Assembly: GCA_016197225.1 (NCBI GenBank)
Contig: JACPWC010000071.1
Location: 14,217 to 78,216 of the forward strand
DNA length: 64,000 nt
Reading direction: 5' to 3'
Source: Chloroflexota bacterium
Lineage (GTDB): Bacteria; Chloroflexota; Anaerolineae; Anaerolineales; VGOW01
Below the pieces are notes generated by a model. It saw only the letters and a list, made by a program, of their open reading frames with translations, was not told the origin of the DNA and did not search any database. Each line of letters opens with the position of its first letter. Within the stretch, counting starts at the first letter, position 1. The position numbers were made by a program, and so were the translations under genes. Shown here in pieces: positions 3,931 through 38,025 of the stretch.

Positions 3931-5523
3931 ATGCCCGACAAAAATCGTGATGTGATTCTAGAATCAGGCATCCCCGTCAAACCCGTTTACGGGCCGGAAG
4001 ACCTCAAGGAGGCTGACGGCATTGGCGGGCCGGGCGAATTCCCGTTCACGCGCGGAATCCATCCGCTCATGTATCGCGCCCGCCCGTGGACGATGCGCCA
4101 GTATGCCGGCTTCGGCACGCCCGCCGAGACCAACGAGCGCTTCAAGTTCCTCATCGGCAACGGGCAGAACGCGCTTAACGTCGCCTTCGATCTGCCGACG
4201 CAGATGGGATTGGACTCCGACGACCCGCTGGCCGAGGGCGAAGTGGGGCGGGTGGGGATGGCGGTGGACACGTTGGCGGACATGGAGACCGCCTTTGACG
4301 GCATCCCCATCGAGAAAATCAGCGTCTCGCTCACCATCAACGCCGTGGCCGCGCCAATTATGGCGATGTATCTCGTCGTGGCCGAGAAGCATGGCGTCCC
4401 GCTCACTGACGTTCGCGGGACTTCGCAGAACGACATTCTCAAAGAATACATAGGGCGCGGAGCGTGGATTTTCCCGGTGGAGCACGGCATCCGGCTGGTG
4501 ACGGACACGATTGAGTTCTGCGCCAAGCAAGCGCCGAAGTATTACCCGGTGAGCGTGTGCGGCTATCACATCCGCGAGTCGGGCGCGAACCCGGTGCAGG
4601 AGATCGCTTACGCTTATTGCATCGCCCGCGCCTACATTCGCGAAGCGCTGGGGCGCGGCCTGAACGTGGACGACTTCGCCGAACGGCTCTCGTTCAACTT
4701 CGACATCTTCGGCAACCTCTTCGAACAGGTGGCAAAATTTCGGGCGGCGCGCAAGCTGTGGGCCAAAATTCTGCGCGACGAGTTCGGGGCGCAGAAGCCG
4801 GGCACGATGCAGATGAAGATGATCGCCGGGGGCGGCGGCGGCGGCCTGACCATTGAACAACCGGAAAACAATATCGTGCGCGGCGCGTATTACGCCCTCA
4901 TCTCCGCCCTCTCCGGCGCGCAAACGATGGCCCTGTGTTCATACGACGAAGCCTACACCATCCCCACTGAGAAGGCGGCGTTGATTTCCCTGCGGACGAT
5001 GCAAATTCTGGTGGAAGAGATGGGATTGTGTGACACCGCCGACCCGCTGGGCGGCTCCTACTATGTCGAATGGCTGACGAACGAAATGGAGCATCGCATC
5101 GCCGCCGAGATGAAGCGCGTGGACGGCGAGATGGGCGGCATTGTTCGCGCCGTGAGCGAGGGCGCGGTGCAACGCGAGGTGGCGCATCAGGCCTTGAAGG
5201 TTGAGCAAGGGTTGCAGGACGGGACGATTCCCAAAGTCGGCGTCAACCGGTATCGAATGAATGAAGAAAGCCGCGACGTTGAATTGCACGACTACAAACC
5301 GGAGCAGGCCGAAGACGCCATCCGCCGACTCAGCGCCGTTCGCGCCAGCCGCGATTCACAGGCAGTGGCCTCGGCGCTGGAGAAAGTGCGCGAGGCGGCG
5401 GCGGACGGCCAGAACGTGATGCCGGCGATGATGGACGCTGTGCGGGCTTACGCAACGCTGGGCGAGATCACCAAGACGTTGAAGGAAGTGTTTGGCGTGT
5501 TTCGAGAGCCGGTGCGGTTGTAA
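3931..5523 (+). CDS. methylmalonyl-CoA-mutase-family catalytic (TIM-barrel) large subunit, without a B12 domain
   Basis: FPFTRGIHPLMYRARPWTMRQYAGFGT, NALNVAFDLPTQMGLDSD and YHIRESGANPVQEIAY are hallmark mutase blocks. The 530-aa protein ends before any cobalamin-binding domain. Confidence 0.9.
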   Translation: MPDKNRDVILESGIPVKPVYGPEDLKEADGIGGPGEFPFTRGIHPLMYRARPWTMRQYAGFGTPAETNERFKFLIGNGQNALNVAFDLPTQMGLDSDDPLAEGEVGRVGMAVDTLADMETAFDGIPIEKISVSLTINAVAAPIMAMYLVVAEKHGVPLTDVRGTSQNDILKEYIGRGAWIFPVEHGIRLVTDTIEFCAKQAPKYYPVSVCGYHIRESGANPVQEIAYAYCIARAYIREALGRGLNVDDFAERLSFNFDIFGNLFEQVAKFRAARKLWAKILRDEFGAQKPGTMQMKMIAGGGGGGLTIEQPENNIVRGAYYALISALSGAQTMALCSYDEAYTIPTEKAALISLRTMQILVEEMGLCDTADPLGGSYYVEWLTNEMEHRIAAEMKRVDGEMGGIVRAVSEGAVQREVAHQALKVEQGLQDGTIPKVGVNRYRMNEESRDVELHDYKPEQAEDAIRRLSAVRASRDSQAVASALEKVREAAADGQNVMPAMMDAVRAYATLGEITKTLKEVFGVFREPVRL

Positions 5524-5600: not shown

Positions 5601-6776
5601 CCTTTGCTCTCCTCTCTCACCGTCCTCTCTCTCGAACAAGCCACGACTCTCCCGTTCCTAACTCAGCGTTTAGCGCGGGAAGGAGCGCGAGTGATTCGCA
5701 TCGAGACTCCGGGGCGCGGCGACCCGAACCGCTATGTGGGCAAAAAGTTCCTCGATGAAGACGGCATGGCCAGTTACTTCCTGCCGAACAACTGCGGCAA
5801 GCAAGCCATCACCCTCAACCTCGCCGAAGCCGAAGGCCGCTCAATCCTTCAATCTCTAATCTCTAATCTCCCCGTAGACATCTTCGCCACCAACAACCGC
5901 CCGTCCAGTTATCACAAACTTGGCATTGACTACGAGACTATCAAGACCATCCGACCAAACATCATCTGGCTCGGCACCACCGGCTTTGGCCCGGACTCGG
6001 ACGAAGCGGCCTACGACCCGGTTCTGCAAGCCCGCGCCGGTTGGATGGACTTGACCGGCGAACCGGACGGCTCACCGCTCGTCTTTGGCTTGCCGATGGT
6101 TGATCTTGGCGCATCTGAGCACGCTTACGGCGCGTTGATGAAAGCACTGTACCGACGCGCCGTGACTGGCGAAGGAAGCCGAATTGATATTTCCATGTTC
6201 CGGTCAACCGTCTCCTGGATGGCAAGCCCGATCATGCTCACCGCCCTCGGCGAACGGGTGACCCGACGCGGCAACACTCACCAGTTTTTCGCCCCGGCCT
6301 CGGTTTACCCGACTCGCGATGGCTACGTTTACGTGGCCGTCGGCAATGACCGGCAGTGGGAGGCCATCACCAAACTGCCCGGCTTCGAGTCGCTGGCCGA
6401 CGAAACGTATCAACGCAACGCGGGCCGAATCGCCGATGTGGAGAAACTGAACCGGCGACTCGCCGACTGCACCCGAACCATGAGCGTCGCCGATCTCGCA
6501 ACCGCCCTGAACAGCATTGGCGTGCCAATTGCCAAAGTGAACACGCTCCGAGACGTGCTGGAAGACCCTCTGCTGAAAAAGGAATTTACCAACGTTCGCG
6601 ATGAGAGAAGCGGCACAGAAGTGATCCTGCCACCGCTGGCTGAGGCCGGGGTAATTCGTGAATTGCCCCTACGCTTCCCGCCGCGCCTCGGCGAACACAA
6701 CGAGGCGATTTACGGCGAAGCGCTCGGCTTCGATTCCCGAAAAATCGCCAGCCTGAAAGAACACGGTATCATCTGA
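5598..6776 (+). CDS. family III CoA-transferase (CaiB/BaiF-like)
   Basis: LTVLSLEQATTLPFLTQRLAREGARVIRIE is an N-terminal CoA-transferase III pattern, with GFGPDS and a ~390-aa length. ATG 5598 was chosen over the longer ORF start at 5574. Confidence 0.8.
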   Translation: MPLLSSLTVLSLEQATTLPFLTQRLAREGARVIRIETPGRGDPNRYVGKKFLDEDGMASYFLPNNCGKQAITLNLAEAEGRSILQSLISNLPVDIFATNNRPSSYHKLGIDYETIKTIRPNIIWLGTTGFGPDSDEAAYDPVLQARAGWMDLTGEPDGSPLVFGLPMVDLGASEHAYGALMKALYRRAVTGEGSRIDISMFRSTVSWMASPIMLTALGERVTRRGNTHQFFAPASVYPTRDGYVYVAVGNDRQWEAITKLPGFESLADETYQRNAGRIADVEKLNRRLADCTRTMSVADLATALNSIGVPIAKVNTLRDVLEDPLLKKEFTNVRDERSGTEVILPPLAEAGVIRELPLRFPPRLGEHNEAIYGEALGFDSRKIASLKEHGII

Positions 6777-6827: not shown

Positions 6828-8903
6828 ATGCGATTGGGAATTGACGTCGGCGGCACCTTCACCGACTTTGTTTTGCTCGACGATGCCACCGGGCAGGTCA
6901 ACACCTACAAGTGCCTCACCACGCCCCGCGATCCCTCGGACGCGATTGAAGAAGGCGTTCGCGGGCTGGCCGATCAGGTTCCCGATCACGTCGAACGGCT
7001 GGAAGAGATTATTCACGGCACGACGCTGGTCATCAACGCCATCATTGAGCGCAAAGGCGCGCGCACCGGCTTGATTACGACCCAGGGCTTTCGCGACGTG
7101 CTGGAACTCGGGCGCGAGATTCGTTACGCGCCCTACGATGTCTTCGCCGAAGTCCCGGAGCCGCTCGTTCCCCGCCACCGCCGACTGGAAGTGGTCGAGC
7201 GCCTGCGCGCCGACGGGACTGTCGTGAGGCCGCTTGATGAATCAGAAGCGCGGGAGACAGTGCGGGCGCTGAAAGAGATGGACGTTGAGTCCATCGCCGT
7301 CTGTTTGCTCAACTCATTCGAGAACCCGGCGCACGAACTGGCCCTCAAACGACTCATCTGTGAAGAATTTCCATCGGCTTCTGTTTCAATTTCATACGAA
7401 GTCCTGCCGCAAATCCGCGAATACGAGCGCACCAGCACCACCGTCACCAACGCCTACGTCAAACCGCTCACCGAAAAATATCTGCGGGCGCTCTACAACC
7501 GGCTGGCCTCGCTCGGCTTCAGCGGACGGCTGTTCATCATGCTGTCCAGCGGCGGAGTCACCTCTGCGGAAACTGCCGCCGAGTTTCCCGTCCGCATTAT
7601 CGAGTCCGGGCCGACGGCGGCGGTCATCGCCGGGCAATACTACAGCCGCCTGTTCAATTTGCCGGAAATGTTCTGCTTCGACATGGGCGGCACCACGGCC
7701 AAGTCGTGTTTGATTCAGGAAGGCATCGCCGGGGTTGTGCCGACGTTTGAAGTGGGGCGCGTCCAACGCTTCATGAAGGGAAGCGGCCTTACCATTCAAG
7801 TGCCGGTTGTAGACTTGATGGAGATCGGCGCGGGCGGCGGGAGTATCGCCCGCATGAGCCGCCTCGGCACTTTGCAAGTGGGGCCGCAGAGCGCGGGCGC
7901 GGAGCCGGGGCCGATTTGCTACGGTCGCGGCGGCGTTGAGCCAACCGTCACCGACGCCGATTTGCTGTTGGGCTATCTCGACGCCGATTACTTTCTCGGC
8001 GGCACAATGAAGCTGGATGTTGAGGCGGCCAAACATGGGATCGAAGAACGAGTCGCCAAACCGCTGGGCGTGTCTTATCTTCAAGCCGTGTGGGGCATTC
8101 ACGACCTGATCAACGAGACGATGGCCGCCGCCGCCAAGACGCACATCGCCGAGCGCGGCGGCAACCCGCAGGTGGTCACCGTCGCCGCCTTTGGCGGGGC
8201 GGGGCCGGTTCACGCTTACGGGCTGGCGCGCAAGCTCGGCGCGCCGCGCCTCATTGTTCCGCCCAACGCCGGAGTCGGCTCGGCGCTGGGATTCTTCACC
8301 GCCCCACGCGCCTTCGATCTGGTTCGGAGTCACAAAGCGCCTGTTCTGTCGGCGGACTTTGCGGAGATCGAATCGTTGTTCCGCGAGATGGAGGCCGAAG
8401 GCGAACGCACGTTGCGGAAGGCAGGCGCGGAGGGCGCGATTGAGTTTTTGCGTTCGGTGGATGCGCGGTTTATTGGGCAAGGTTCGGAAACGAATCTGCC
8501 GATTCCCGAACGCGATTTCACGATGCTGACTCTGGCGGACGTGCGCCGCCGCTTCGACGAAACGTATAGCCACTTGTACGGGCGCACGTATCCCGAGTCG
8601 CCAGTTGAGTTTGTCAACTTCCGGGTGCGGGCCAGTTTGCCGGTGCGGTTGCTGGAATTGCCGCGATTGCAAAACAGGAGTGGGCGCGTTCAAGACGCGA
8701 TCAAAGGCGAACGCAGAGCATTTTCCGGCCTCGCCCGCGACTTCATCCCCTTCACCGTGTACGACCGCTACAAGTTATTCCCCGGCGCGACGTTCTCCGG
8801 CCCGGCCATTGTCGAAGAGCGCGAGTCAACCGTCATCATCGGCGAAGAGGCGAGGGTGAGGGTGGATGAGTTTGGATTCTTGTGGATTGATTTGAAAGAA
8901 TAG
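6828..8903 (+). CDS. hyuA: hydantoinase/oxoprolinase A-type subunit (HyuA/acetone-carboxylase-beta-like)
   Basis: MRLGIDVGGTFTDFVL N-terminal ATPase motif, DMGGTTAK, and a 691-aa length, followed by a HyuB-type gene. Confidence 0.85.
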   Translation: MRLGIDVGGTFTDFVLLDDATGQVNTYKCLTTPRDPSDAIEEGVRGLADQVPDHVERLEEIIHGTTLVINAIIERKGARTGLITTQGFRDVLELGREIRYAPYDVFAEVPEPLVPRHRRLEVVERLRADGTVVRPLDESEARETVRALKEMDVESIAVCLLNSFENPAHELALKRLICEEFPSASVSISYEVLPQIREYERTSTTVTNAYVKPLTEKYLRALYNRLASLGFSGRLFIMLSSGGVTSAETAAEFPVRIIESGPTAAVIAGQYYSRLFNLPEMFCFDMGGTTAKSCLIQEGIAGVVPTFEVGRVQRFMKGSGLTIQVPVVDLMEIGAGGGSIARMSRLGTLQVGPQSAGAEPGPICYGRGGVEPTVTDADLLLGYLDADYFLGGTMKLDVEAAKHGIEERVAKPLGVSYLQAVWGIHDLINETMAAAAKTHIAERGGNPQVVTVAAFGGAGPVHAYGLARKLGAPRLIVPPNAGVGSALGFFTAPRAFDLVRSHKAPVLSADFAEIESLFREMEAEGERTLRKAGAEGAIEFLRSVDARFIGQGSETNLPIPERDFTMLTLADVRRRFDETYSHLYGRTYPESPVEFVNFRVRASLPVRLLELPRLQNRSGRVQDAIKGERRAFSGLARDFIPFTVYDRYKLFPGATFSGPAIVEERESTVIIGEEARVRVDEFGFLWIDLKE

Positions 8904-14598: not shown

Positions 14599-14656
14599 GA
14601 GAGAAAAGAGAAAAGAGAATTGGAGAATTAGAGAATTCTCTAATCCTCCAATTCTC
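14599..14656. repeat. palindromic form of the GAGAATT/GGAGAAT heptamer array
   Basis: The 19-nt arms are gagaattggagaattagag (14615-14633) and ctctaatcctccaattctc (14638-14656). They match 18/19 as an inverted repeat around AATT and are preceded by gagagagaaaagagaaaagag. Confidence 0.8.
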
Positions 14657-14667
14657 TATTACCTGTC

Positions 14668-15432
14668 ATGAACATTTTAGTTTGCGTCAAACGTGTCCCG
14701 GCGGCGGGCGGCAAGATGTCGCTGACGGCGGACGAACAGGACATTGAAACGCGCTACTTCAGCTTCACAGTCAGCCCGCACGAAGAATGCGCGATTGAAG
14801 AAGCGGTGCGGTTGATTGAGGCGCACGGCGGAAGCTCGACTGTGCTGACGCTCGGCCCCGAGGTTGCCACCGAGCAATTGCGCGAAGGCATGGCGCTTGG
14901 CATCGAGCGGGCCATCCTGCTGGAAACCGATGGCCGCGAGTGGGATGGCGGGGCAACAGCGGGGGCTATCGTCGAGGCCGTTCGGGCGCAAGAGGCGGCT
15001 GGACACAAGTTCGATCTTCTGCTCTTCGGCAACGAGGCGGCGGACTCGGGCGGCTATCAAGTCGGCATCCGCGTCGCCCACGCCCTCGACTTGCCGTGCG
15101 TCACCGGAGTCAAAGAGTTGAAGATTCGGGATGGCAAGGCCGTTGCCAAACGGCAGGCCGGCGGCGGCTGGGACATTTTTGAAGTTCCCCTGCCCGCCGT
15201 CATCAGCGTGAAAGAGGGCATCAACCTGCCGCGCTATCCGTCTCTGCCGGGCCGCCTCAAAGCCAAGAAGAAGCCCATCGAACGCCTCACCCCAACCTGG
15301 CCCGGAAACGGTTTGGAAAAGATTCGACTCAAACTGCCCGCCGAGCGCGATCATCAAGTTGAGATTTTGGGCAAAGGCCCGGAAGCGGCGGTGAAGGCCG
15401 TTGAGTTGTTGCAAAGATTGGGAATGGTATGA
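14668..15432 (+). CDS. etfB: electron transfer flavoprotein beta subunit
   Basis: MNILVCVKRVP start and EtfB-typical length and blocks. It overlaps the etfA start. Confidence 0.9.
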   Translation: MNILVCVKRVPAAGGKMSLTADEQDIETRYFSFTVSPHEECAIEEAVRLIEAHGGSSTVLTLGPEVATEQLREGMALGIERAILLETDGREWDGGATAGAIVEAVRAQEAAGHKFDLLLFGNEAADSGGYQVGIRVAHALDLPCVTGVKELKIRDGKAVAKRQAGGGWDIFEVPLPAVISVKEGINLPRYPSLPGRLKAKKKPIERLTPTWPGNGLEKIRLKLPAERDHQVEILGKGPEAAVKAVELLQRLGMV

Positions 15433-16403
15433 CCATGATTCTCGGATTGATAGAACACGACCGTGGCAAGTTGAACGACCTGTCGCTTGAGATGCTGACG
15501 TTTGGCCGCCGACTCGCCAATCAACTTGGTTCTACGCTTGAGGCCGTTTTGATCGGCGAGGCCGCCCGCCCGTTGGCCGAGCGGCTTCAGGCTTACGGTG
15601 TTTCGACCGTTTATCTCGTGCAACATGATCGACTCGACGATTACGCTCCCGAAGCCTGGGCGGGGAGTCTGGTGGAAGTGATGATGGCGGCCAAGCCGCA
15701 GATCGTGATCGCGCCCGGAAGCGATCGTGGCAACGAAGTGATGGCTCACGTGGCCGCTCGAAGCAACTTGCCAATGGCCGCCAACTGCACTGGAGCTTTG
15801 CCGGGCGATCCATTCATTGTGACTCGCGTGCGCTGGGGCGGCAGTCTTCTGGAAGAAGCCCGGCTGGGCGGCGAAGTGAAACTGCTGACGGTTTCGCCGC
15901 ACGCCCTTGTTGCCGAAGAAGCGCCCGCGGCTGAGCTGACGATCAACACCATCACCCCGTCTCTCGCCGACAAAGATTTTCGGGTGCGGGTCACGGGCCG
16001 GGTTGAGGCGGGCGAAGGCAAAATCTCGCTGGCCGAAGCCAAAGTGGTGGTGGGCGGCGGGCGCGGCGTGGGCAGCGCCGAAGGCTTCAAGAAGCTTGAA
16101 GAGTTGGCCGGACTGTTGGGCGCGGCGGTCGGTTGCTCGCGCGCGGTGACAAGCCTGGGCTGGCGGCCACACGCCGACCAGATCGGCCAGACGGGAACCC
16201 GCATCGCGCCAGAGATTTACATCGCCTGCGGTGTGAGCGGGGCTACGCAACACCTTGTTGGCTGTCAGGGGGCCAAGCGCATCTTAGCCATCAACACCGA
16301 CCCCGAGGCGACTATCATCGCCAAAGCCAATTACGCCATCATCGGCGACCTGCACGAGGTGCTTCCGGCGTTGAGTGAGGAGGTTAGGAAGGTGAGGAAG
16401 TAG
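15429..16403 (+). CDS. etfA: electron transfer flavoprotein alpha subunit
   Basis: The C-terminal FAD-binding block is VVVGGGRGVGS...GQTGTRIAPEIYIACGVSGATQHLVG...[10 protein letters not shown]. Confidence 0.9.
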   Translation: MTMILGLIEHDRGKLNDLSLEMLTFGRRLANQLGSTLEAVLIGEAARPLAERLQAYGVSTVYLVQHDRLDDYAPEAWAGSLVEVMMAAKPQIVIAPGSDRGNEVMAHVAARSNLPMAANCTGALPGDPFIVTRVRWGGSLLEEARLGGEVKLLTVSPHALVAEEAPAAELTINTITPSLADKDFRVRVTGRVEAGEGKISLAEAKVVVGGGRGVGSAEGFKKLEELAGLLGAAVGCSRAVTSLGWRPHADQIGQTGTRIAPEIYIACGVSGATQHLVGCQGAKRILAINTDPEATIIAKANYAIIGDLHEVLPALSEEVRKVRK

Positions 16404-16477
16404 GCGGGCGCGGGAAGCTGCTTTGAATGTAGAATAAAGGCGTATTACGCAACCCAGAACGATAAGCGGAGACCCCA

Positions 16478-16684
16478 ATGGAAGTCGTAACTGTTTCGCC
16501 AAAGTTTCAGGTCGTCATCCCCCTCAGTGTCCGGCAGTCACTCGGCCTCAAGCCCGGCCACAAAGTACAGGTCATCTTGTACGAAGGCCGGATTGAGCTG
16601 ATCCCGCTCAAGCCCATCAAGAAGATGCGCGGCTTTCTCAAAGGCATTGATACGACGATTGAGCGCGAAGCCGACCGCGTATGA
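16478..16684 (+). CDS. vapB: AbrB/SpoVT-fold antitoxin (VapB-like)
   Basis: 68 aa. VSPKFQVVIPLSVRQSLGLKPGHKVQV is a typical AbrB-type swapped-hairpin motif. It has a 4-nt overlap with the PIN gene. Confidence 0.8.
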   Translation: MEVVTVSPKFQVVIPLSVRQSLGLKPGHKVQVILYEGRIELIPLKPIKKMRGFLKGIDTTIEREADRV

Positions 16685-17058
16685 ACGTCGTTGACTCATC
16701 GGGCTGGCTGGAATACCTGGCCGAAGAGCCAAACGCGGATTTTTTCGCGCCCGCCATTGAGAATACAGCCGAGTTGATTGTGCCTTCCATCAGCGTCTAC
16801 GAAGTGTTCAAGCGCATCAGCCAACAACGCGATGAGCATACGGCACTCCAGGCAACGGCGCTAATGATGCAAGGCCAAGTCATTCCTTTGGATATTTCGA
16901 TTGCGTTGAGCGCGGCGAAAACCTCAGTAGCACTGTCTCTGCCGATGGCGGATAGTGTGATCCTGGCGACGGCGCGCGCTTTTGGCGCGACCCTGTGGAC
17001 GCAAGATGAGCACTTCAAGAGCGTTGAAGGGGTGCGCTACATCGCCAAGAAGAAATAA
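16681..17058 (+). CDS. vapC: PIN-domain ribonuclease toxin (VapC-like)
   Basis: 125 aa. It has an N-terminal VVDSSGWLEY acidic motif and later D/E residues (ADSVILATA, TQDEHF) in PIN-like spacing. Confidence 0.8.
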   Translation: MNVVDSSGWLEYLAEEPNADFFAPAIENTAELIVPSISVYEVFKRISQQRDEHTALQATALMMQGQVIPLDISIALSAAKTSVALSLPMADSVILATARAFGATLWTQDEHFKSVEGVRYIAKKK

Positions 17059-17083
17059 CGGCGACAACGCCGCCGAGTTGTGG

Positions 17084-17211
17084 AGCGCATCTTAGCCATC
17101 AACACCGACCCCGAGGCGACTATCATCGCCAAAGCCAACTACGCCATCATCGGCGATCTGCATGAGGTGCTTCCGGCGTTGAGCGCGGGGATTAAGAAGG
17201 TGAAGAAGTAA
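17084..17211 (+). repeat. displaced duplicate of the etfA 3' end (direct repeat of 16276-16403)
   Basis: Hand alignment gives 118/128 identical nt. The copy reads in frame as [41 protein letters not shown]-stop, against ...PALSEEVRKVRK-stop in the intact gene. Confidence 0.9.
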
Positions 17212-17300
17212 GTGGGGTGGCTTTGGGATATAAAGTGGAATTGTTATCCCGAAGCCTTGATTTGGTAGCTTCCCTGTAGCCGAAAGTTTCGTGAGGTCTC

Positions 17301-18473
17301 ATGAGTTGGTTGGATCTGTTGCAAACGGTCATTGATAATTTGCGAGACGGGTTCGAACGCCGCGAACAACCCATCCAAAATTCAAATGACCATCGCATGC
17401 GCCCATTAACACGAGATGATGTCATAAAGATGATTCAGCAGAATGGTGGCTCAGAAGGTTTAGACCTATCCAAATGTGATCTGTCGGGAGCGGATTTACG
17501 CAATCTGAGTCTGCGCGGGGTCATATTTGGCAGATGTGATTTTGTAACCACAGGATACGGCGCAAACCTGGTAGGCGCTACCTTTACCGACTCCGACCTG
17601 ACGCGAGCTAATCTGACGCATACAAACCTTCAAGATGCCGGTTTTTGGGAAGCCAATCTCTATGAAGCATCATTGTTTGCGGCTCAAGCTCAGAATGCAC
17701 ATTTTGGTCGAGCTGATCTGAGGCGAGCCGACTTGTATGGTTGTCAATTAGGCGGCGCTAATTTGTGGTACGCTCGTTTGGAGGAAGCCAACCTCGCAAC
17801 TGCTAGACTCGCCGACGCCTTAGTTACAGGCGTTCAATTGGGTGATTTTCTATTACAGGAAAAGCAGAAAGACTATGAAGAATACTTCGAACGTTGGTAT
17901 GCAAGAGACCTGCCAGCCAAGTATCGAGAACGCCACCTGAAACTCAGGTATCACGAAGCCACCGAAATATATATGAATCTCAAGAACGCCTACTTGTCAC
18001 ATGGGCGCTACAAGGAAGCAAGTCGGGCATATATCAATGAGCGTCTATCAAGGCGGGCGACTTGTGCCCCATGGCGAGCGAAAGCATATTACAGCACCGA
18101 ATGGAATAGTAGCATTTTGAGAAAACTTTGGTTCTACCCCAAATATTTCGTTACATGGATTTTGGATTGGTTGGCAGACTTGCTGTGTGGTTATGGCGAA
18201 AAACCTCTTCGCACCGTGCTATGGGCGGGCGTTATTCTACTGGCATTCCCTCTCCTATTTGCCTTGTCAGGTGGTGTTGTTTCGCGGAGTGGACAAATGA
18301 CGTGGCTGGATTACTTGAACTACAGTTTGGGAACTTTCACTACGATAGGGTTTAGCCAATTCGAAGCCCAAACGCCTTTAGCGCAAGTTCTGACCAGTAT
18401 CGAAGCCTTGCTCGGTATTTCCACTTTGGCATTACTAATGTTTACTTTAGGCAATCGTATCAGTCGGTCGTAG
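17301..18473 (+). CDS. pentapeptide-repeat protein fused to a two-TM, K+-channel-like pore domain
   Basis: Runs of A(D/N)LxG-type pentapeptides (CDLSGADLRNLSLRGVIF...ANLVGATFTDSDLTRANLTHTNLQDAGFWEANLYEASL). C-terminal TM helices flank LGTFTTIGFSQF, which resembles a pore-helix/selectivity-filter motif. The region is visibly AT-richer. Confidence 0.7.
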   Translation: MSWLDLLQTVIDNLRDGFERREQPIQNSNDHRMRPLTRDDVIKMIQQNGGSEGLDLSKCDLSGADLRNLSLRGVIFGRCDFVTTGYGANLVGATFTDSDLTRANLTHTNLQDAGFWEANLYEASLFAAQAQNAHFGRADLRRADLYGCQLGGANLWYARLEEANLATARLADALVTGVQLGDFLLQEKQKDYEEYFERWYARDLPAKYRERHLKLRYHEATEIYMNLKNAYLSHGRYKEASRAYINERLSRRATCAPWRAKAYYSTEWNSSILRKLWFYPKYFVTWILDWLADLLCGYGEKPLRTVLWAGVILLAFPLLFALSGGVVSRSGQMTWLDYLNYSLGTFTTIGFSQFEAQTPLAQVLTSIEALLGISTLALLMFTLGNRISRS

Positions 18474-18498
18474 GGAATTTGAAATCGCCACCTAGCCC

Positions 18499-18620
18499 CA
18501 ATACGGTTCGGTTAAGCCGTATCGGGGCTTGCCCGCTTGAAGTTTCGCCAAGTTTATAGCCAAAATCGCGATGTTTTCAGCCAAATCCAACGGATGTGAT
18601 CTGCTAACCGAACCGTATTG
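18499..18620. mobile_element. 122-bp MITE-like element with perfect 16-bp terminal inverted repeats and a 10-bp target-site duplication
   Basis: The TIRs are caatacggttcggtta (18499-18514) and taaccgaaccgtattg (18605-18620). They are flanked by direct repeats cacctagccc at 18489-18498 and 18621-18630. There is no ORF inside. Confidence 0.75.
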
Positions 18621-18694
18621 CACCTAGCCCGCGAATGCAGGTGCTGTTGGGCAAGCTACATCGGATGAACAACTCTATCCCCTCCGAACTCAAA

Positions 18695-19129
18695 ATGACC
18701 TCCCCCTTCAAATTCTTCACCCCCCTCAAAGTCCGCTTCAACGAAACCGACCTGCAGGGCCACGTCAACTTTGCCCACTATCTCACCTATTTCGACGTGG
18801 GCGCGACCGAGTACATGGCCGCCATCGGTTACGACTACGACGCTTTGCTGGCCGAGGGTGTTGACCTGCTGTACGCCGAGTCGCACTGCAATTACAAATC
18901 GCCGGTCAAGTGGCCCGAAACTTTGCGAATTCACACCCGCATCGCCGAACTTGGCCGCCGCAGTCTGCGCTACGAATTTGACGTTCGGGCCGAGCAGGAC
19001 GGACGGCAAGTGGCCACCGGCCACATCATCGCCATCATCGCCGAGCGCGGGACGTGGGCCGAACGGGAAGTGCCGGCCAAACTCCGGCAGGCGGTTACAA
19101 ACTACGAAAACAAGGAGATTACACAATGA
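18695..19129 (+). CDS. 4-hydroxybenzoyl-CoA-thioesterase-family (YbgC-like hotdog) acyl-CoA thioesterase
   Basis: VRFNETDLQGHVNFAHYLTYFD ... LYAESHCNYKSPVKWPETLRI is the typical hotdog thioesterase pattern. The start is either ATG 18695 or 18665. Confidence 0.8.
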   Translation: MTSPFKFFTPLKVRFNETDLQGHVNFAHYLTYFDVGATEYMAAIGYDYDALLAEGVDLLYAESHCNYKSPVKWPETLRIHTRIAELGRRSLRYEFDVRAEQDGRQVATGHIIAIIAERGTWAEREVPAKLRQAVTNYENKEITQ

Positions 19130-20086
19130 ATTCAACAGCAGATGTCGTCGTCATCGGCGGCGGAGTCATGGGCGCGAGCACGGCGTTCCGGCTGGCCGAG
19201 CGTGGGCTAAAGGTGACGCTGGTGGAGAAGAGTTTCCTGGCCGGCGGCACCACCGGCAAATCGTCGGCCATTGTTCGTCAGCATTACTCAAATGAGACCA
19301 CGGCTCGCATGGCGCTGTTCGCCCTGAGCATCTTCCAAAACTTTGCCGAGGCCACCGGCGGCGAGTGCGGCTACATGCCGGTTGGCTTCGTGGTGCTGGC
19401 CTCGGCGAACGATCGCGAAGGACTGGCGGCCAACGTGGCGATGCAGCAGAGCGTGGGCATCAACACTCGCCTGCTCTCAGCCGAAGAAATTCGCGAAATC
19501 GCGCCCGGAATGGCCCAATGCAAAACTGTTCTCAATAAAAAGGCTTTTCTATTTGTGCACAAGTGTCAAAATACAGTTTTTTAAAAGTTTTATTCTTCCA
19601 TATTTTGACTATTGTGCCGCGCCTCACGTTTTCGTTGACTTCCCCAACGTCGCCTACTTCCGCCCTGAAACCGGCGGCATGACCCTGGTGGGTTCAGTCG
19701 ATCCGGTCGAGGCCGACGATCGCGCCAACCCGGACAGCTACAACGAGCGGGTTGACTTTGAGTTTGTGGCCGACTCTGGAACCAAGCTGGCGCGGCGCTT
19801 TCCGTGCATGGAGCGCGGCGTGAGCCGCGGCGGCTACGCCGGCATTTATGACGTAACGCCGGACTGGCATCCGGTGATTGACGAAGTTCCGGCTGGCAGC
19901 GGATTCTTCGTCGCCGCCGGGCACAGCGGGCACGGTTTCAAATTAAGCCCCGCCGTCGGAGTGATGGTGGCCGACCTTGTTACCGGCCAGCGCACCGAAG
20001 GCCTTGACCCAACTTTGTTCCGCTTTGCGCGTTACGCTGAAGGCCGGCCTGTGCGCGGACGATATGACTATGGTATTGCGGGTTAG
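19126..20086 (+). pseudogene. DAO/sarcosine-oxidase-beta-family FAD oxidoreductase, disrupted (frameshift plus internal replacement)
   Basis: The N-terminal part (DVVVIGGGVMGASTAFRLAERG...EEIREIAPGM, frame 1) runs into stops at 19582. The C-terminal part (VAYFRPETGGMTLVGS...GHSGHGFKLSPAVG, frame 2) resumes near 19640. About 100 aa of the central domain is absent, and an AT-rich ~110-bp filler sits between the parts. Confidence 0.75.
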
Positions 20087-20136: not shown

Positions 20137-20234
20137 CTCAGAGCCTGTTTGAAAATTGCTCAAAGCCCGCGTCCTCGCGGGCGTTCCCAACCGCGAGGAC
20201 GCGGTTGGGGAGCATTTATTAAACAGGCTCTCAG
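20137..20234. repeat. nested palindromic element upstream of an orphan gene
   Basis: The outer stem is agagcctgttt / aaacaggctct. The inner stem is a perfect 13 bp, cgcgtcctcgcgg (20168-20180) / ccgcgaggacgcg (20191-20203). An alternative pairing is cccaacc / ggttggg. Confidence 0.6.
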
Positions 20235-28322: not shown

Positions 28323-29669
28323 ATGACCCTCGATGCCGAACTTGCCTCAGCGACGCGCCTGCAGGGTCGTTGGCTCACAGCGGCCCGCGCGGTGTGGGCG
28401 GCCGTATTTGTCTTCTCGGTGGCCGTTTTCCTCGTCGCCCTGCCAGCGCGCTATGCCCAACTGCTATCACCCGAGGATGAAATCAGGGATGGGATGACGC
28501 GCCTCGGTTTTTCGCCAGAGATTGTTGAACAGTATGGGAGCGAGGCCGCCATGCGCGCGGTCTTGTCCCAGCTTAGCCTGCCGGAGACGGGGTATGCCGT
28601 TTTCAATGTAGCCCTCGAAGGGGGCGTGGCATTAGTGTACATCGTCGTCGCGCTAATGATCTACTGGCGCAAATCCGATAGCCTGATGGGGCTTTTCACC
28701 TCCCTGTTCCTGGTCACTTTCGGCGTCGCCGGGAGTTCTTACCTTTTGATACCGCTCGAAGTGCGGCATCCGGCCGGATTCTACCTGGTGGCGGTAGTGG
28801 CTACCCTGGCCTATTCGATGCTGCCGCCGTTTTTCTATCTCTTCCCCGATGGGCGTCTGGTGCCCTATTGGGCGTGGATTCCGGCCGGGTTTTGGGCGGG
28901 CACAACCTTTTTCTGGAATTTTTTACCCCGCTCGCCATTAAATCCAACCAGTTGGCCGCTCTGGCTTTTTTTCCTGTATTTGCTCTTGCTTTGGGGATCA
29001 ACAGTCGTTGCCCAAATCTATCGCTACCGGCGCGTTTCGAGCATGGCCCAGCGCCAACAAACCAAGTGGGTGGTGTTCGGTTTTGGGCTGATGATTTTAC
29101 TGATCCTTCCTCCCTACATGATTCTCCCCGGTTTGTTACCGAACGTCGCGCCCGAAACGGTTTATTCAATACTGTCACCCGTACAAACCCTGGCAATGAG
29201 CATCATCCCGATTGCGCTTGCCATCAGCATCCTCCGTTACCGCCTGTGGGACATTGACATCCTCATCCGCAAAACGCTGGTGTACTCGGTGCTGACCGGT
29301 GCCCTCGCCCTCACTTACTTTGGCAGTGTCGTCATTCTGCAAAGCCTTTTCACCGCCGTCACCGGCCAGCAGTCGCCGGTCGTCGTCGTCCTCTCTACCC
29401 TCGCCATCGCCGCGCTGTTCTTCCCGCTCCGCAAGCGCGTGCAGGACACGATTGACCGCCGCTTCTACCGCAAGAAGTACGACGCCGCCAAAACACTCGC
29501 CGACTTCGCCGCGACCTGCCGCGACGAGACCGACCTGGAGAAGTTGACGGCTCGGCTAGTGGAAGTGGTGGAGGAGACGATGCAGCCGGAGAGTGTGAGC
29601 CTGTGGCTGACTTTAAATAAAGTGAGCTCAGCGAATCCGCACAACGAGCGTACTGAGCAGGAGAGATAG
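28323..29669 (+). CDS. polytopic membrane protein, paralog 1 of a four-member family with a conserved cytoplasmic C-terminal module
   Basis: A variable multi-TM N-terminal part is followed by YRYRRVSSMAQRQQTKWV, LRYRLWDIDILIRKTLVYS, DRRFYRKKYDAAKTLADFAATCRDETDLEKLTARLVEVVEETMQPESVSLWL. Confidence 0.75.
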   Translation: MTLDAELASATRLQGRWLTAARAVWAAVFVFSVAVFLVALPARYAQLLSPEDEIRDGMTRLGFSPEIVEQYGSEAAMRAVLSQLSLPETGYAVFNVALEGGVALVYIVVALMIYWRKSDSLMGLFTSLFLVTFGVAGSSYLLIPLEVRHPAGFYLVAVVATLAYSMLPPFFYLFPDGRLVPYWAWIPAGFWAGTTFFWNFLPRSPLNPTSWPLWLFFLYLLLLWGSTVVAQIYRYRRVSSMAQRQQTKWVVFGFGLMILLILPPYMILPGLLPNVAPETVYSILSPVQTLAMSIIPIALAISILRYRLWDIDILIRKTLVYSVLTGALALTYFGSVVILQSLFTAVTGQQSPVVVVLSTLAIAALFFPLRKRVQDTIDRRFYRKKYDAAKTLADFAATCRDETDLEKLTARLVEVVEETMQPESVSLWLTLNKVSSANPHNERTEQER

Positions 29670-30682: not shown

Positions 30683-32458
30683 ATGGAAAAGCAGATGAAT
30701 CTCAAACTGGAAGACGGCTCTCGCGTAGCAGTGATGGGCGGTGGCCCGGCGGGGTCGTTCTTCGCCTACTTCCTGCTCGACATGGCTGAACGTGCCAAGC
30801 TGAGCCTTCGCGTGGACATCTACGAGCCGCGCGATTTCACCGTTCCCGGCCCACTCGGGTGTAATATGTGCGGCGGCATCATCTCCGAGTCGCTGGTGCA
30901 GATGCTGGCCGCCGAGGGCATCAACTTGCCGCCCACCATCGTCCAGCGCGGTATCTCGGCCTACATGTTGCACACCGACGCGGGCAGTGTTCGCATCGCC
31001 ACGCCGCTGGAGGAGAAGCGCATCGGGGCAGTGTATCGCGGCCCTGGCCCGCGCGGCATCAAGGAACTCAAGTGGGGCAGTTTCGACGGCCACCTGCAAT
31101 CGCTGGCCCGGCAGAAGGGCGCGAACGTGATCCGGGCGCGGGTCGAGGAGGTGAGCTGGCAGGACGGCAAAGTGGCGGTCAAGGGCAAAGGCGGCGCGCC
31201 GGAAGTCTACGACCTGCTGGCGGTGACGGCGGGCATCAACACCGCCGCCGCCAAACTCTTTGAGAAGTTGAATCTGGCTTACAAGCCGCCGAAGACGACC
31301 AAGACCTTCATCCGCGAATACTATCTGGGCGAAGAGACGATTGGGAAAGTCCTCGGGAACGCAATGCACGTCTTCCTGCTCAACATCCCCCGGCTGGAGT
31401 TCGCCGCCATCATCCCCAAAGGCGACTACGTGACGACCTGCCTGCTGGGTGAGGACATTGACAACGATTTGATCCAATCCTTCCTGAACTGCCCCGAGGT
31501 CAAGCGCATCATGCCGCCGGAATTGAATCTGGAGCAGGGGGCGTGCCAGTGCCAGCCGCGCATCGCCACCGAGGGCGCGGTTCAGCCGTTCGGCGACCGC
31601 ATCGTCTTCATCGGCGATTGCGGGGTGACGCGGCTGTACAAGGACGGCATCGGGTCGGCTTATCGCACCTCGAAGGCCGCGGCCACAACCGCCGTCTTCG
31701 AGGGTATCTCCGCTAATGACTTTCGCAAGCACTACCTGCCTGCCTGCCGGGCCATCGAATTCGACAACGCCATCGGCAAGATCGTCTTCCTGGTCACGCG
31801 GCTGATTCAGGAGCGGGGCTTCGCGCGGCGGGCGGTGGTGCGCATGACGGCGGACGAACAGCAGAGGCCAGGCAGTCGGCGGCGCATGAGCACCGTGCTG
31901 TGGGATATGTTTACCGGGAGCGCGCCCTACAAAGAAATCTTTTTGCGGACTCTGCATCCGGCATTCTGGCTGCGGTTGAGCTGGGATTTGTTGGTCTCGC
32001 TTCTGCCTGCCAGCGCCGGTTCGCAAGCCGAGGCGGGTGAGCGCCGCCAGGAGTTACCTATGAATTCCGGAGCCTTAGGCAAGGTCTTTGAACCCGGCGA
32101 CATCCTCTTTCGCCAGGGCGAGGTCGGCCAATGTATGTTTGTCATTCAGGAAGGGCAGGTGGCAATCGTGCAGGAACACGAGGGCGAAGAGATTTTTCTG
32201 GGCGTGCGCAGCGCCGGCGAGTTTTTGGGCGAAATGGCGATTTTTGAAGCCGAGCCGCATTCGGCGACGGTGCGCGCCCTGAGTCAGGTGCGCGTGCTGA
32301 CGGTGGATCAGAAAAACTTTCAGCGGCGCATTCACGAAGACCCGTCGCTGGCCTATCGTCTCTTCAAACTCATGTCGCGCCGTATCCGCGAGTTGGGCCA
32401 GGAGAAAGCCCTGCTGAGCAAGGAGATTGACCGGCTGAGCGAGGGGAGGGCGGAATGA
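30683..32458 (+). CDS. FAD-dependent oxidoreductase (geranylgeranyl-reductase-like) fused to a C-terminal cyclic-nucleotide-binding domain
   Basis: The N-terminal VAVMGGGPAGSFFAYFLL matches GxGxxG. The C-terminal ~120 aa (FRQGEVGQCMFVIQEGQVAIV...FLGEMAIF...RSATVRAL) is a cNMP-binding beta-barrel pattern. Confidence 0.75.
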   Translation: MEKQMNLKLEDGSRVAVMGGGPAGSFFAYFLLDMAERAKLSLRVDIYEPRDFTVPGPLGCNMCGGIISESLVQMLAAEGINLPPTIVQRGISAYMLHTDAGSVRIATPLEEKRIGAVYRGPGPRGIKELKWGSFDGHLQSLARQKGANVIRARVEEVSWQDGKVAVKGKGGAPEVYDLLAVTAGINTAAAKLFEKLNLAYKPPKTTKTFIREYYLGEETIGKVLGNAMHVFLLNIPRLEFAAIIPKGDYVTTCLLGEDIDNDLIQSFLNCPEVKRIMPPELNLEQGACQCQPRIATEGAVQPFGDRIVFIGDCGVTRLYKDGIGSAYRTSKAAATTAVFEGISANDFRKHYLPACRAIEFDNAIGKIVFLVTRLIQERGFARRAVVRMTADEQQRPGSRRRMSTVLWDMFTGSAPYKEIFLRTLHPAFWLRLSWDLLVSLLPASAGSQAEAGERRQELPMNSGALGKVFEPGDILFRQGEVGQCMFVIQEGQVAIVQEHEGEEIFLGVRSAGEFLGEMAIFEAEPHSATVRALSQVRVLTVDQKNFQRRIHEDPSLAYRLFKLMSRRIRELGQEKALLSKEIDRLSEGRAE

Positions 32459-33756
32459 CTTTCGAATCCAACACAACCCTGCGCCCGCCGTGGCTCAACG
32501 TCGCGCGCGCCGCCTGGATCGCCCTGTCACTCAGCGCGCTTATCGTGTTCACCATCGGCACGTTCAATCAACTGCAAGGACCGCTGCCGAGCTGCACCAC
32601 GCCGGGCACCGAGTGCGGTCCGTGGTCGATCAGTCAAGAGGATATTCAATTGGGGCAGCAGTTGGGCATGTCAGGACAGCTCTTGTTTCTGATCGCGACT
32701 GCGGTGTTGTGGGTCCCGCGGCTGGGCTATATTTTCGTCGCCGGGATTATTTTCTGGCGCAAGTCAGACGATTGGATGGCATTAGCGTTATCTTTGCTGC
32801 TGACGCTAGGGATCACCGAGGGTATCACCGACGTCGGTGTGCTGTTGCCGCTGCAATCTACGGTCTACGCGCTGTCCATCGCACTCTTTGTGCTATTGCC
32901 CTTTGTTTTTCCGAACGGACGTTTTGTGCCGCGCTGGATGCGCTGGCTGGTTCTGCCCATATGGCTGGCGTGGTTGGCTTCAATGGTCTGGACGCAGCTA
33001 CTTGGCCTGGTCAGCCTGATTTGGTTTGTTCCGGCGGCGTACGCCGTGGTCCACCGCTATCGGCGCGTCTTCAACGCGGTGGAACAGCAGCAGACCAAAT
33101 GGGTGATGGGTGGGCTGTTAAGTTCGTTCGTGGCGTTTGTGCCCATATTGTTCAGCTCGTTCGTTTTTCCGCCGACGCAGTCCACCCCCGATCGGCTCGC
33201 GTTCATGTTTCTGGTGTATGTCCCGGTTTATGTGGGCGTATCGTTGCTGGTGCCCATCTGCATCGGCGTGGCTATCTTCCGCTATCGGATGTGGGACATC
33301 GACGTCATCGTTCGCAAGACGCTGGTGTACTCGGTGCTGACCGGCGCGCTCGCCCTCACTTACTTCGGCAGTGTTGTCATTCTGCAAGGCCTCTTCACCG
33401 CTATCACCAGCCAGCAGTCGCCGGTCGTCCTTGTCCTCTCCACCCTCGCCATCGCCGCCCTGTTCTTCCCGCTTCGCAACCGGGTGCAGGATTTCATTGA
33501 CCGCCGCTTCTACCGCAAGAAGTACGACGCGGCCAAAACGCTGGCCGATTTCGCCGCCACCTGCCGCGACGAGACGGATTTGGACAGGTTGACGGCGCGG
33601 CTGGTGGAAGTGGTGCAAGAGACAATGCAGCCGGAGAGTGTGACGTTGTGGCTAAAAGATTCCAACGCAAAGCCTGCCCCTTCGGCAAGCTCAAGGCAAG
33701 CTCTGAGCCTAATGTGCTCGTTGAGAAGCTTGTTATCGTCGAAGCGAAGGCCGTGA
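32455..33756 (+). CDS. polytopic membrane protein, paralog 2
   Basis: It shares HRYRRVFNAVEQQQTKWV, FRYRMWDIDVIVRKTLVYS and DRRFYRKKYDAAKTLADFAATCRDETDLDRLTARLVEVVQETMQPESVTLWLKDSNAKP. Its ATGA overlaps the stop of the upstream FAD/cNMP gene. Confidence 0.75.
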   Translation: MTFESNTTLRPPWLNVARAAWIALSLSALIVFTIGTFNQLQGPLPSCTTPGTECGPWSISQEDIQLGQQLGMSGQLLFLIATAVLWVPRLGYIFVAGIIFWRKSDDWMALALSLLLTLGITEGITDVGVLLPLQSTVYALSIALFVLLPFVFPNGRFVPRWMRWLVLPIWLAWLASMVWTQLLGLVSLIWFVPAAYAVVHRYRRVFNAVEQQQTKWVMGGLLSSFVAFVPILFSSFVFPPTQSTPDRLAFMFLVYVPVYVGVSLLVPICIGVAIFRYRMWDIDVIVRKTLVYSVLTGALALTYFGSVVILQGLFTAITSQQSPVVLVLSTLAIAALFFPLRNRVQDFIDRRFYRKKYDAAKTLADFAATCRDETDLDRLTARLVEVVQETMQPESVTLWLKDSNAKPAPSASSRQALSLMCSLRSLLSSKRRP

Positions 33757-36771: not shown

Positions 36772-38025
36772 ATGAAAAAACTGGAAGTTGTTCCTAACCC
36801 CTGGCTCCGCCTCATGCGCTACGCGTGGGTTGTGACGGCTGTGCTGGCGTTCGGCATTCTCATCGCCGCCCTGCCACACTACTACGCCAGAGTCCTGGTG
36901 GAGGCGGCCAACCAGCTCGTGGACGGGCCGCCCGAGTTCGTCTTCGCGATGGATTTCATCGGCACGTTTGCTTCCGTTCTCGCCGCGGTCGTCTCCCTTG
37001 CCGTCGCGGTTCTGCTGTTCAGGCGCAAAGCGCGCGACGGCATGGCGCTGTTCCTGTCATTCTTTCTGCTCGGCTACGGCACGATGATGGCGGGGCCGCT
37101 GGAAGCGCTTTTTGATTTTGGCGGCCCGGGCAGTGAGTTTGCCCTGCTGGCCCAGACCGGTCTGCTGACGGCGCCAATGATTGCCTTCGGTTTCCTTTTT
37201 CCGAACGGGAGATTTGTCCCGCGCTGGAGCCGGGGCCTCCTGGTCATCTCGCTTTTTCTCCTGCCACTGCTGGCCTCGACGCCGGTGAGCCAATGGTTTT
37301 CGACCCCCACGCCCGCGACCCTCGTGGGCGAATTCGGTCTGGGGGCGCTCCTCCTCGCGGCGCTCGGCGCGCAAGTCCACCGCTATCGCCGGGTGTCGAA
37401 TTTCGACGAGCGCCAGCAGACGAAATGGGTGCTGTATGGCTTCGTGCTTTTCTTTGCCCTGATAGTTGTCTTGACGATCCCGTACTCGATCTTGGAGGCC
37501 ATCCCGAAAGGCAGGCGCATTCCCTGGTGGGGGCCTCTGAACGGCGCGCTGTGGTGGCTCTCGTTGTGTGTTCTGCCCGTTTCGATTGCGCTGGCCATTC
37601 TGCGGCATCGCCTGTACGACATTGACATCCTCATCCGCCGCACCCTGCAATACTCGGTGTTGACCGGCCTGCTTGCCTTCACCTACTTTGGCAGTATCGT
37701 CGTCCTGCAAAGTATTTTCACAGCAGTCACCGGCCAGCAGTCGCCGGTCGTCCTCGTCCTCTCCACTCTCGCCATCGCCGCCCTGTTCTTCCCGCTTCGC
37801 AACCGGGTGCAAGATTTCATTGACCGCCGCTTCTTTCGCAAAAAGTACGACGCGGCTAAAGTCATCGCCGAGTTCGCCGCCACCTGCCGCGACGAGACGG
37901 ATTTGGATAAACTGACAGCACGGCTGGTGGAAGTGGTAGACGAGACGATGCAACCTGAAAGTGTGACGCTGTGGCTAAAAGACTCTAACGCAAAGCCGCA
38001 AAGGCGCGAGGGCGCAAAGGAATGA
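36772..38025 (+). CDS. polytopic membrane protein, paralog 3
   Basis: HRYRRVSNFDERQQTKWV, LRHRLYDIDILIRRTLQYS, DRRFFRKKYDAAKVIAEFAATCRDETDLDKLTARLVEVVDETMQPESVTLWLKDSNAKP. It starts 3 nt after the kinase stop. Confidence 0.75.
   Translation: MKKLEVVPNPWLRLMRYAWVVTAVLAFGILIAALPHYYARVLVEAANQLVDGPPEFVFAMDFIGTFASVLAAVVSLAVAVLLFRRKARDGMALFLSFFLLGYGTMMAGPLEALFDFGGPGSEFALLAQTGLLTAPMIAFGFLFPNGRFVPRWSRGLLVISLFLLPLLASTPVSQWFSTPTPATLVGEFGLGALLLAALGAQVHRYRRVSNFDERQQTKWVLYGFVLFFALIVVLTIPYSILEAIPKGRRIPWWGPLNGALWWLSLCVLPVSIALAILRHRLYDIDILIRRTLQYSVLTGLLAFTYFGSIVVLQSIFTAVTGQQSPVVLVLSTLAIAALFFPLRNRVQDFIDRRFFRKKYDAAKVIAEFAATCRDETDLDKLTARLVEVVDETMQPESVTLWLKDSNAKPQRREGAKE

Follow-up and report, generated by a model that had tools for sequence, protein, structure and literature searches.

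A vapBC cassette between two copies of the etfA 3' end in a Chloroflexota bacterium, and its possible insertion by homology-guided recombination

In a stretch of 64,000 nucleotides from a Chloroflexota bacterium (contig JACPWC010000071.1 of assembly GCA_016197225.1; the whole stretch is called the window below), we observed that a toxin-antitoxin cassette, vapBC, lies just behind etfA, the gene of the electron-transfer flavoprotein alpha subunit, and is followed by a second copy of the end of this gene. This anatomy, which shows no recombinase among the nearby scanned open reading frames (ORFs), recurs with variable boundaries in related contigs, both behind other genes and around other cargo. 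We consider it somewhat probable (about 0.6) that vapBC was inserted behind etfA by the recombination functions of the host, guided by homology and independently of a dedicated recombinase.

The repeat search showed that the 3' end of etfA occurs twice in direct orientation, with 92% identity over 133 nt and a spacing of 808 nt (copies A and B; the coordinates of the features are collected in Table 1). In the coding part, the pairwise alignment gave 118 identical positions out of 128, without indels. The leading 55 nt contain no mismatch; three scattered synonymous third-position changes follow (AAT/AAC, GAC/GAT and CAC/CAT), and the remaining seven mismatches are all found within the final 28 nt. 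The corresponding protein tails are SEEVRKVRK and SAGIKKVKK, and the stop codon has the same position in both copies, TAG in copy A and TAA in copy B. The similarity stops about 5 nt beyond the stop codon. When the sequence that follows copy B (17217-17340) was compared with seven cassette leaders, in search of an extension of the repeat into the leader, the local alignments were at the level of dinucleotide shuffles (p = 0.02-0.76); therefore, the repeat does not reach further than about 5 nt past the stop codon. Apart from it, long repeats in the window are confined to paralogous gene families, with 74-84% identity. No comparable repeat exists elsewhere in the 64 kb, and the pair of copies A and B is not due to chance. 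The 680 bp that separate the copies (16404-17083) contain vapB and vapC and nothing else. An earlier note, made on the letters of this DNA alone, had already described the position of the duplication, its 118/128 identity, the divergence towards the end and the preserved frame and stop, as well as an insert of 680 bp with only vapBC; the repeat search and the alignment confirmed the former, the ORFs and the Pfam assignments the latter.

The target gene, etfA, is intact. In the database, EtfA (P0121) has 322 aa and begins two residues later than the ORF of the window; look-ups with the exact EtfA and VapC sequences gave no match. Copy B yields a mechanical ORF of 43 aa with a GTG start (17080-17211), the annotation of which as a pseudogene fragment is warranted. 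In the closest relatives, L064 and L001 (90 and 88% EtfA identity, respectively), copy B aligns to the single etfA end, with an identity of 92.5% in L064 and of 88% in L001.

Judged from its sequence, the cassette fits a type II VapBC module, made of a PIN-domain toxin and an AbrB-type antitoxin with predicted translational coupling. The stop codon of vapB and the start codon of vapC overlap by 4 nt (ATGA, 16681-16684), and the acidic PIN residues D5, E41, D91 and D109 were read in the translation of VapC. Homologues of VapC are about 8000, many of them with 85-91% identity, and VapB shares 85-97% identity with the partners of VapC homologues on other contigs. The leader carries a TAGAAT hexamer (16430-16435), a palindrome GCGTA-T-TACGC (16440-16450) and a GGAG (16468-16471); hexamer and palindrome are nearly invariant in the alignment of six cassette copies. 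The palindrome is probably a VapB operator, and a promoter role of the leader is likewise predicted. The conserved core of the cassette corresponds to an expression unit, in which the hexamer, the palindrome and the Shine-Dalgarno sequence precede vapB and vapC. As to its ends, the homology of the window cassette to other cassettes begins near 16417-16424, about 58 nt upstream of vapB, as compared to about 100 nt upstream of vapB in L048, L056 and L062, and cassette homology ends about 12-17 nt past the vapC stop codon. A CGGCGGCG-like motif after this stop codon is common to other cassettes; the GC hairpin at the right end of the cassette in the window, CGGCG-ACAA-CGCCG, which was listed on the minus strand, lies inside 17059-17083, and the junction in L056 shows GAC..CGGCG. 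Cassette DNA had no match in plasmid or phage collections, and PADLOC gave no match for VapB, VapC or the channel gene that lies downstream. The module shares with chromosomal VapBC modules the gene order, the 4-nt overlap, the domain families, the acidic PIN residues and a palindrome in the promoter region; the proteins are ordinary and it is the insertion scar that is unusual.

The earlier note had proposed to look for the same cassette at other duplicated gene ends, and such cases were found in related contigs. Related vapBC cassettes, with 76-90% nucleotide identity, lie behind three other genes, i.e., a PPDK_N-domain gene, a PIG-L gene and yjeF/nnr. The PPDK_N gene is followed by vapBC and by a relic of its end, which measures 101 nt in L056, L057 and L058 and 243 nt in L062, where the gene caller annotated it as a second PPDK_N fragment. 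In L059, vapBC adjoins a convergent PIG-L gene on the opposite strand, and a 94-nt relic is found on the far side. Behind yjeF/nnr, the relic that follows vapBC is 215 nt long in L121, where it is annotated as a Carb_kinase fragment (4413-4624), and is down to about 21 nt at the same site in L061. The vapBC contexts methyltransferase-YwiC, AXE1/DUF2298 and metK had no gene-end repeat. A gene-end scar is present in four out of seven evaluable vapBC contexts. Between L062 and L056, vapBC is 93.6% and its leader 94.7% identical, whereas the identity of the PPDK_N gene is only 71.2%; in the pair of L121 and L061, vapBC is 91.6% and yjeF 80.8% identical. This comparison suggests that the cassette is mobile relative to the host gene and yet is found at the same gene end, as it would be if targeted by gene-end homology.

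The same scar was found at etfA with other cargo. In L020, an EcoO109I-type restriction endonuclease (PF14511), an N4/N6 methyltransferase (PF01555) and a 106-aa ORF are encoded between etfA and a relic of its end, which is 232 nt long and 87.5% identical (8375-8606). In L016 and in L087, which is related to it, the same position holds genes for a secreted protein and an M23 peptidase, and the relics (8104-8276 and 8227-8403, respectively) are of 173-177 nt with about 90% identity. A clean empty site for L016 is provided by L092, whose sequence after etfA matches the sequence after the relic of L016. The identity between L016 and L087 is a mosaic over the whole locus, first 98-99% and then 54-97%, and clusters of mismatches are also present in etfA away from the repeat. 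Directly behind etfA, two unrelated restriction-modification systems sit in related metagenome-assembled genomes (MAGs), one in L019 (4849-7600) and L088 and the other in L020 (5994-8374). The cargo of L020 ends, before the etfA relic, in a 66-130-nt fragment of the end of a dsrE-like gene. In L019 and L088, this gene is found on the far side of the restriction-modification genes that follow etfA there and that differ from those of L020. Therefore, the incoming DNA of L020 appears to be an arbitrary piece of donor chromosome rather than a defined element.

The source of the window is itself a metagenome-assembled genome, in which repeats with 92% identity are typical sites of strain misassembly, and the assembler or the binning might have stitched together two strain variants of the etfA end. 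This explanation has a negligible chance of being correct. The two copies differ at 10 positions, and the junction between vapC and position -128 of etfA (17083/17084) shares no long k-mer with etfA and so needs spanning reads; moreover, at least seven other contigs, obtained in different projects and with different assemblers, have the same architecture, and in L062 and L121 the relic is annotated as a second Pfam fragment.

More than 80 related loci keep the order DMGDH-etfB-etfA. In the relatives with an empty site (L009/L075, L067, L068 and L069), tblastn placed the start of a 4HBT thioesterase gene about 0-60 nt after etfA. In the window, the gap between the two genes is about 2.3 kb and contains vapBC, copy B and a pentapeptide/ion-channel gene, and homology to L001 and L064 resumes at about 18691. 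In L064 and L001, other, unrelated ORFs are found behind etfA, therefore the site is a variable hotspot; the junction downstream of etfA is, in Anaerolineae-like genomes, a hotspot for addiction and defence genes, with allele substitution. As to the comparison of occupied and empty relatives that the earlier note had called for, L064 and L001 have a single etfA end and carry other DNA before the thioesterase gene, and the fully empty loci (L009/L075 and L067-L069) belong to more distant relatives.

According to the reading that we prefer, a chromosomal vapBC addiction cassette would land about 5-20 nt past the etfA stop codon. The incoming DNA would be a linear or circularised fragment from a related bacterium, in which the last ~130 nt of the donor etfA are joined to the cassette, and it would pair with the end of the resident etfA by homologous recombination, either through a Campbell-type single crossover of a circle or in an 'ends-in' configuration. 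The other boundary, at which vapC with the 25 nt that follow it is joined to position -128 of etfA, would be a one-time illegitimate junction. The product of such an event would be an intact etfA with a donor tail (copy A), then the cassette, then the displaced resident 3' end, no longer functional (copy B). The cassette would be deleted by recombination between copies A and B, and post-segregational killing by the stable PIN toxin would select against its loss; this selection against deletion would explain why toxin-antitoxin and restriction-modification cargo is found inside such repeats. We infer the recombination pathway, the stabilising role of VapBC and the direction of the exchange, with copy A imported and copy B native.

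The body of EtfA (residues 1-279) has 88.5-90.3% identity to each of its six closest relatives, while the last 43 aa of copy A are 97.7% identical to those of P0122 and P0123. The 9-aa tail SEEVRKVRK is the same as that of P0122, although the two protein bodies share only 90% identity. Copy B has a tail closest to the SAEI[KR][KR]VKK type of L001 and L064, and the divergence of this tail from the SAEI-type tails of L001, L064 and P0126 is about the same as that of the body. In the last 30 nt, copy B matches L001 and L064 at 27 positions and copy A at 23. Taken together, these comparisons, of which those with P0122 and P0123 are at the protein level only, moderately support an imported end in copy A and a native, displaced end in copy B. 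On the question of which copy is native, also raised in the earlier note, the protein tails speak moderately for copy B; no breakpoint appeared with respect to L064 and L001. Two other proteins, P0125 and P0126, are 99.3% identical in the body and 86% in the last 43 aa, which indicates that recombination replaced the 3' end in a lineage with no known insert; therefore, the etfA end is prone to recombination in this clade. Homology-facilitated illegitimate recombination with a long anchor, i.e., import of the whole etfA, is not favoured, considering that the gene body is equidistant from all relatives. The etfA body of the window does not look imported, so the homologous tract would be short.

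Differences between intact and relic copies were counted by the Nei-Gojobori method and expressed as the ratio of non-synonymous to synonymous differences per site (pN/pS), for which duplication in place with neutral decay of the relic would give about 0.55. The ratio was 0.03 in L020 (26 synonymous and 3 non-synonymous differences, 26 of these 29 at third positions), 0.07 in L016 (13 and 3), 0.07 in L087 (14 and 3) and 0.12 in L121 (16 and 5). Neutral decay in place is rejected for these four loci by their values of 0.03-0.12: either the copies diverged as functional genes in different genomes, or the relic was refreshed by recombination. Higher values were obtained for L062 (11.5 and 13.5, pN/pS 0.35), the window (4 and 5, pN/pS 0.38) and L056 (5.5 and 10.5, pN/pS 0.49). 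The frame is open in all eight relics, with no frameshift or premature stop codon and with indels only in frame, and the orthologous relics of L016 and L087 differ from each other by 9 synonymous and 2 non-synonymous changes. Such coding-like relics may be due to a recent heterologous origin, to recombinational refreshment or to an unrecognised function.

Several observations weigh against an imported copy A and a homology-guided entry. Copies A and B share a TTA leucine codon that is not present in L001 and L064, and they are mutual closest relatives over the first 98 nt. The evidence for import of copy A rests on about 9 variable residues, and sliding-window identity over DMGDH-etfB-etfA with respect to L064 and L001 revealed no recombination breakpoint. 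In the window, L062 and L056, the differences between the copies are just as compatible with a duplication in situ and decay of the relic. For the PPDK_N pair, the repeat copies are identical at 82-85 of 101 positions within a genome and at 65-74 of 101 between genomes; both repeats are host-lineage-specific and neither visibly travels with the cassette, which is the main loose end. In addition, homologous recombination at 85-92% identity over 100-240 nt is inefficient, and no circular or excised form, no empty-site allele of the exact genome and no donor arrangement (etfA-vapBC without relic) was found.

These points bear on an explanation in which only the cassette entered a break behind etfA, through illegitimate or replication-based repair, and the duplication of the target arose in situ, for instance when a staggered break left long overhangs or when a template switch mediated by microhomology copied the 128 nt again; both copies would then be resident and copy B would have decayed. 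This is the original reading of the restriction-modification cases, in which the two repeats resemble each other more closely than they resemble the empty site (PMC2853133). It is consistent with the derived states TTA and CTT shared by copies A and B against L001 and L064, with the identical leading 55 nt, with ratios of 0.35-0.49 in the window, L062 and L056, which are near the value of ~0.55 predicted when one copy is constrained and the other neutral, and with PPDK_N copies that are both host-specific around a cassette conserved at 94%. We nevertheless consider it unlikely. The ratios of L020, L016, L087 and L121 are incompatible with one copy being neutral since the event, the relics are free of frameshifts and premature stops at 8-15% divergence, and the cargo of L020 contains a fragment of a donor gene; furthermore, the tail of copy A is about 4 changes within 30 nt away from an L064-like ancestral state and matches another lineage exactly.

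The earlier note had proposed an integrating element that carries a replacement for the end of its target gene, in analogy with islands that target tRNA genes. Worded as a site-specific mechanism, this would be a mini-element with a surrogate etfA end as attP, moved by a tyrosine or serine recombinase acting in trans. Integrase-less islands mobilised in trans exist, and the locus resembles integrase-driven islands and prophages in that a reconstituted gene end is followed by the cargo and then by the native end, displaced and in direct repeat, with attL/attR-like topology; the left side of the repeat, identical over a block of 55 nt, and the apparently imported tail of copy A agree with such a mechanism as well. 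It differs from them in its cargo of 0.7 kb, in the four unrelated target genes that have no common core, and in cassette ends that are not fixed, the leaders being truncated at different points. The repeats range from 94 to 243 nt and are unequal even at one gene (101 and 243 nt at PPDK_N, 173 and 232 nt at etfA), and unrelated cargo, including the donor fragment of L020, is found with the same scar at etfA. As the earlier note had stated for the integrase, no integrase or transposase domain was detected either in the insert or in the neighbouring ORFs, for which the scan covered 3931-29669. The site-specific reading is therefore quite improbable, and the analogy with tRNA islands is not supported; what stands of that proposal is the intact gene end, the displaced copy and, with moderate evidence, the import of copy A. 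The window contains no tRNA or tmRNA gene, which excludes tRNA-linked integration. An integron cassette was rejected on the basis of the lack of attC-type flanking inverted repeats and of a nearby integrase, as judged with no dedicated attC model.

A further proposal, speculative and on the doubtful side, is that the pair of gene-end repeats serves as a mobility device of recombinase-less cassettes that spread among diverged Chloroflexota at conserved gene 3' ends. A unit made of gene end, addiction module and gene end would be excised via its repeats, or taken up as linear DNA, and would enter again at the orthologous gene by RecA-mediated 'ends-in' or Campbell recombination, the repeats being regenerated from the host. 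If true, it would provide a mechanism for the life cycle of restriction-modification genes as conceived by the Kobayashi group (PMC2853133). The relic would stay coding-like through repeated recombination with functional alleles, and the proposal, if true, would explain open-frame relics that differ only synonymously. Homology-guided insertion by the host, with a single illegitimate junction, remains the reading that we prefer.

The insertion of restriction-modification gene complexes with long target duplication was reportedly described by Nobusato and colleagues in 2000 (Gene 259:99). In this class, the genes insert with long, variable target duplications and without a mobility gene, by a mechanism that remains unexplained (PMC2853133; PMC3874152 also bears on it). 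Our loci share with it a small addictive unit, repeats of tens to hundreds of bp that are variable in length and single-copy in insert-free genomes, the lack of a transposase or integrase, and a position of the insert that is often at, or overlapping with, a gene 3' end. Furuta et al. (2010) define the class by repeats above 30 bp, an insert below 20 kb without mobility genes, a single copy in the uninserted genome and the presence of R and M genes. The repeats of the window are 133 nt long, its insert is of 680 bp and free of mobility genes, and both copies align to one etfA end in L064 and L001; R and M genes are replaced by a toxin-antitoxin pair in the window and are present in L020. The window is a variant of the class and not a member by the published definition, and L020, with a type II restriction-modification system between 232-nt repeats, is a textbook case. 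The window differs from the class in its type II toxin-antitoxin cargo and in its Chloroflexota host; in our set, moreover, the repeats have 84-92% identity, instead of being nearly identical, and those of several loci show almost exclusively synonymous differences, which points to two lineages of origin and not to one template.

Homology-facilitated illegitimate recombination was reportedly described by de Vries and Wackernagel and by Prudhomme and colleagues, both in 2002, and Jackson and colleagues are said to have described C-terminal displacement at Rhs-type loci in 2009. Displacements at Rhs, contact-dependent inhibition (CDI) and type VI secretion system (T6SS) loci have in common with the reading proposed for our loci an anchor of homology in the upstream gene, an illegitimate other end, an orphan 3' fragment downstream and no dedicated recombinase. 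The orphan fragment is represented here by copy B, and the relic of L016 runs directly into the former downstream sequence, as L092 shows. At T6SS/Rhs loci, homology-facilitated illegitimate recombination is credited with the displacement of 3' ends (Kirchberger et al., 2017, PMC5361080). There, however, the displaced ends encode different toxins and come with immunity genes, leading to weapon diversification, whereas here homologous ends of a housekeeping gene flank the payload.

In Microcystis aeruginosa, a ParE/ParD-like module lies between two direct repeats of 152 bp (Klemencic et al., 2021, PMC7935541). Similarly to the window, it consists of a toxin-antitoxin pair just past a gene stop, between long direct repeats and with no mobility gene reported; unlike ours, those repeats are identical and intergenic, contain inverted repeats and are not coding ends of the upstream gene. 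A non-exhaustive search of the literature found no toxin-antitoxin cassette bounded by a duplicated housekeeping-gene end.

Table 1. Features of the etfA-vapBC locus, in coordinates of the window.
Feature	Position	Strand	Basis
etfA, electron-transfer flavoprotein alpha subunit, 324 aa, intact target gene	15429-16403	+	Pfam ETF and ETF_alpha, E about 1e-30 to 1e-33
Copy A, functional etfA end: last 128 nt (stop TAG) plus 5 nt	16276-16408	+	Repeat search, alignment
Left junction and truncated cassette leader	16409-16477	+	Six-copy cassette alignment, leader comparison
vapB, antitoxin, 68 aa, AbrB/MazE fold	16478-16684	+	PF04014, E = 1.7e-7
vapC, toxin, 125 aa, PIN domain	16681-17058	+	PF01850, E = 3.7e-16, residues 3-116
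Right cassette end: GC hairpin and ~8 nt up to the putative illegitimate junction 17083/17084	17059-17083	+	Hairpin search, cassette alignment
Copy B, putative displaced relic of the etfA 3' end, frame open, stop TAA	17084-17216	+	Repeat search, alignment
Pentapeptide-repeat and ion-channel gene, variable region, outside the cassette	17301-18473	+	Pfam Pentapeptide, Ion_trans_2
4HBT thioesterase gene, conserved right-hand neighbour	18635-19129	+	Pfam 4HBT

The pentapeptide/channel gene had no match in any related etfA locus examined, and its GC content of 0.46-0.50 is lower than that of the flanks, which exceeds 0.60; this gene was probably acquired separately at the hotspot. Downstream of it, we observed a pair of 35-nt inverted repeats (18480-18514 and 18605-18639). 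Further on, a gene for a DAO-family FAD oxidoreductase is split into two overlapping ORFs (19054-19584 and 19343-20086), and an AT-rich tract of about 98 nt (19519-19616) takes the place of about 313 nt of L001 (8178-8490); this gene is either a pseudogene or the site of a small, unrecognised insertion. A 44-nt hairpin lies downstream of it (20137-20234). A near-perfect palindrome of 25 nt is present between the DMGDH and etfB genes (14611-14660), and related inverted repeats of the GAGAATTGGAGA type occur elsewhere, e.g., at 949-979 and 5842-5872. The palindrome, the inverted repeats and the hairpin are possibly elements of the repetitive extragenic palindromic type, or terminators. The window also contains four paralogous ORFs of about 420-450 aa (28323-29669, 32455-33756, 36772-38025 and 38072-39349), with 300-nt stretches that are 79-84% identical, and intergenic repeats of about 40 nt rich in GCAAAG/CTTTGCG (at 33928, 37982, 40804 and 44180, and also at 30622, 33971, 38014 and 44222).

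Insertion with long target duplication, known since 2000, is extended here to type II toxin-antitoxin cargo and to Chloroflexota hosts. The loci make up a comparative set, with four gene ends that carry the same cassette family and one gene end that carries cargo of three kinds, and the loci whose repeats come from different lineages allow asking whether a target was duplicated or a surrogate end imported. The merit of following up these loci lies in the recurrent scar and in the evidence that a 'duplication' can be heterologous. Relic gene ends can be used as markers of the recent acquisition of addiction and defence genes in MAGs, and the loci suggest that selfish genes need not bring their own integrase to enter a chromosome.

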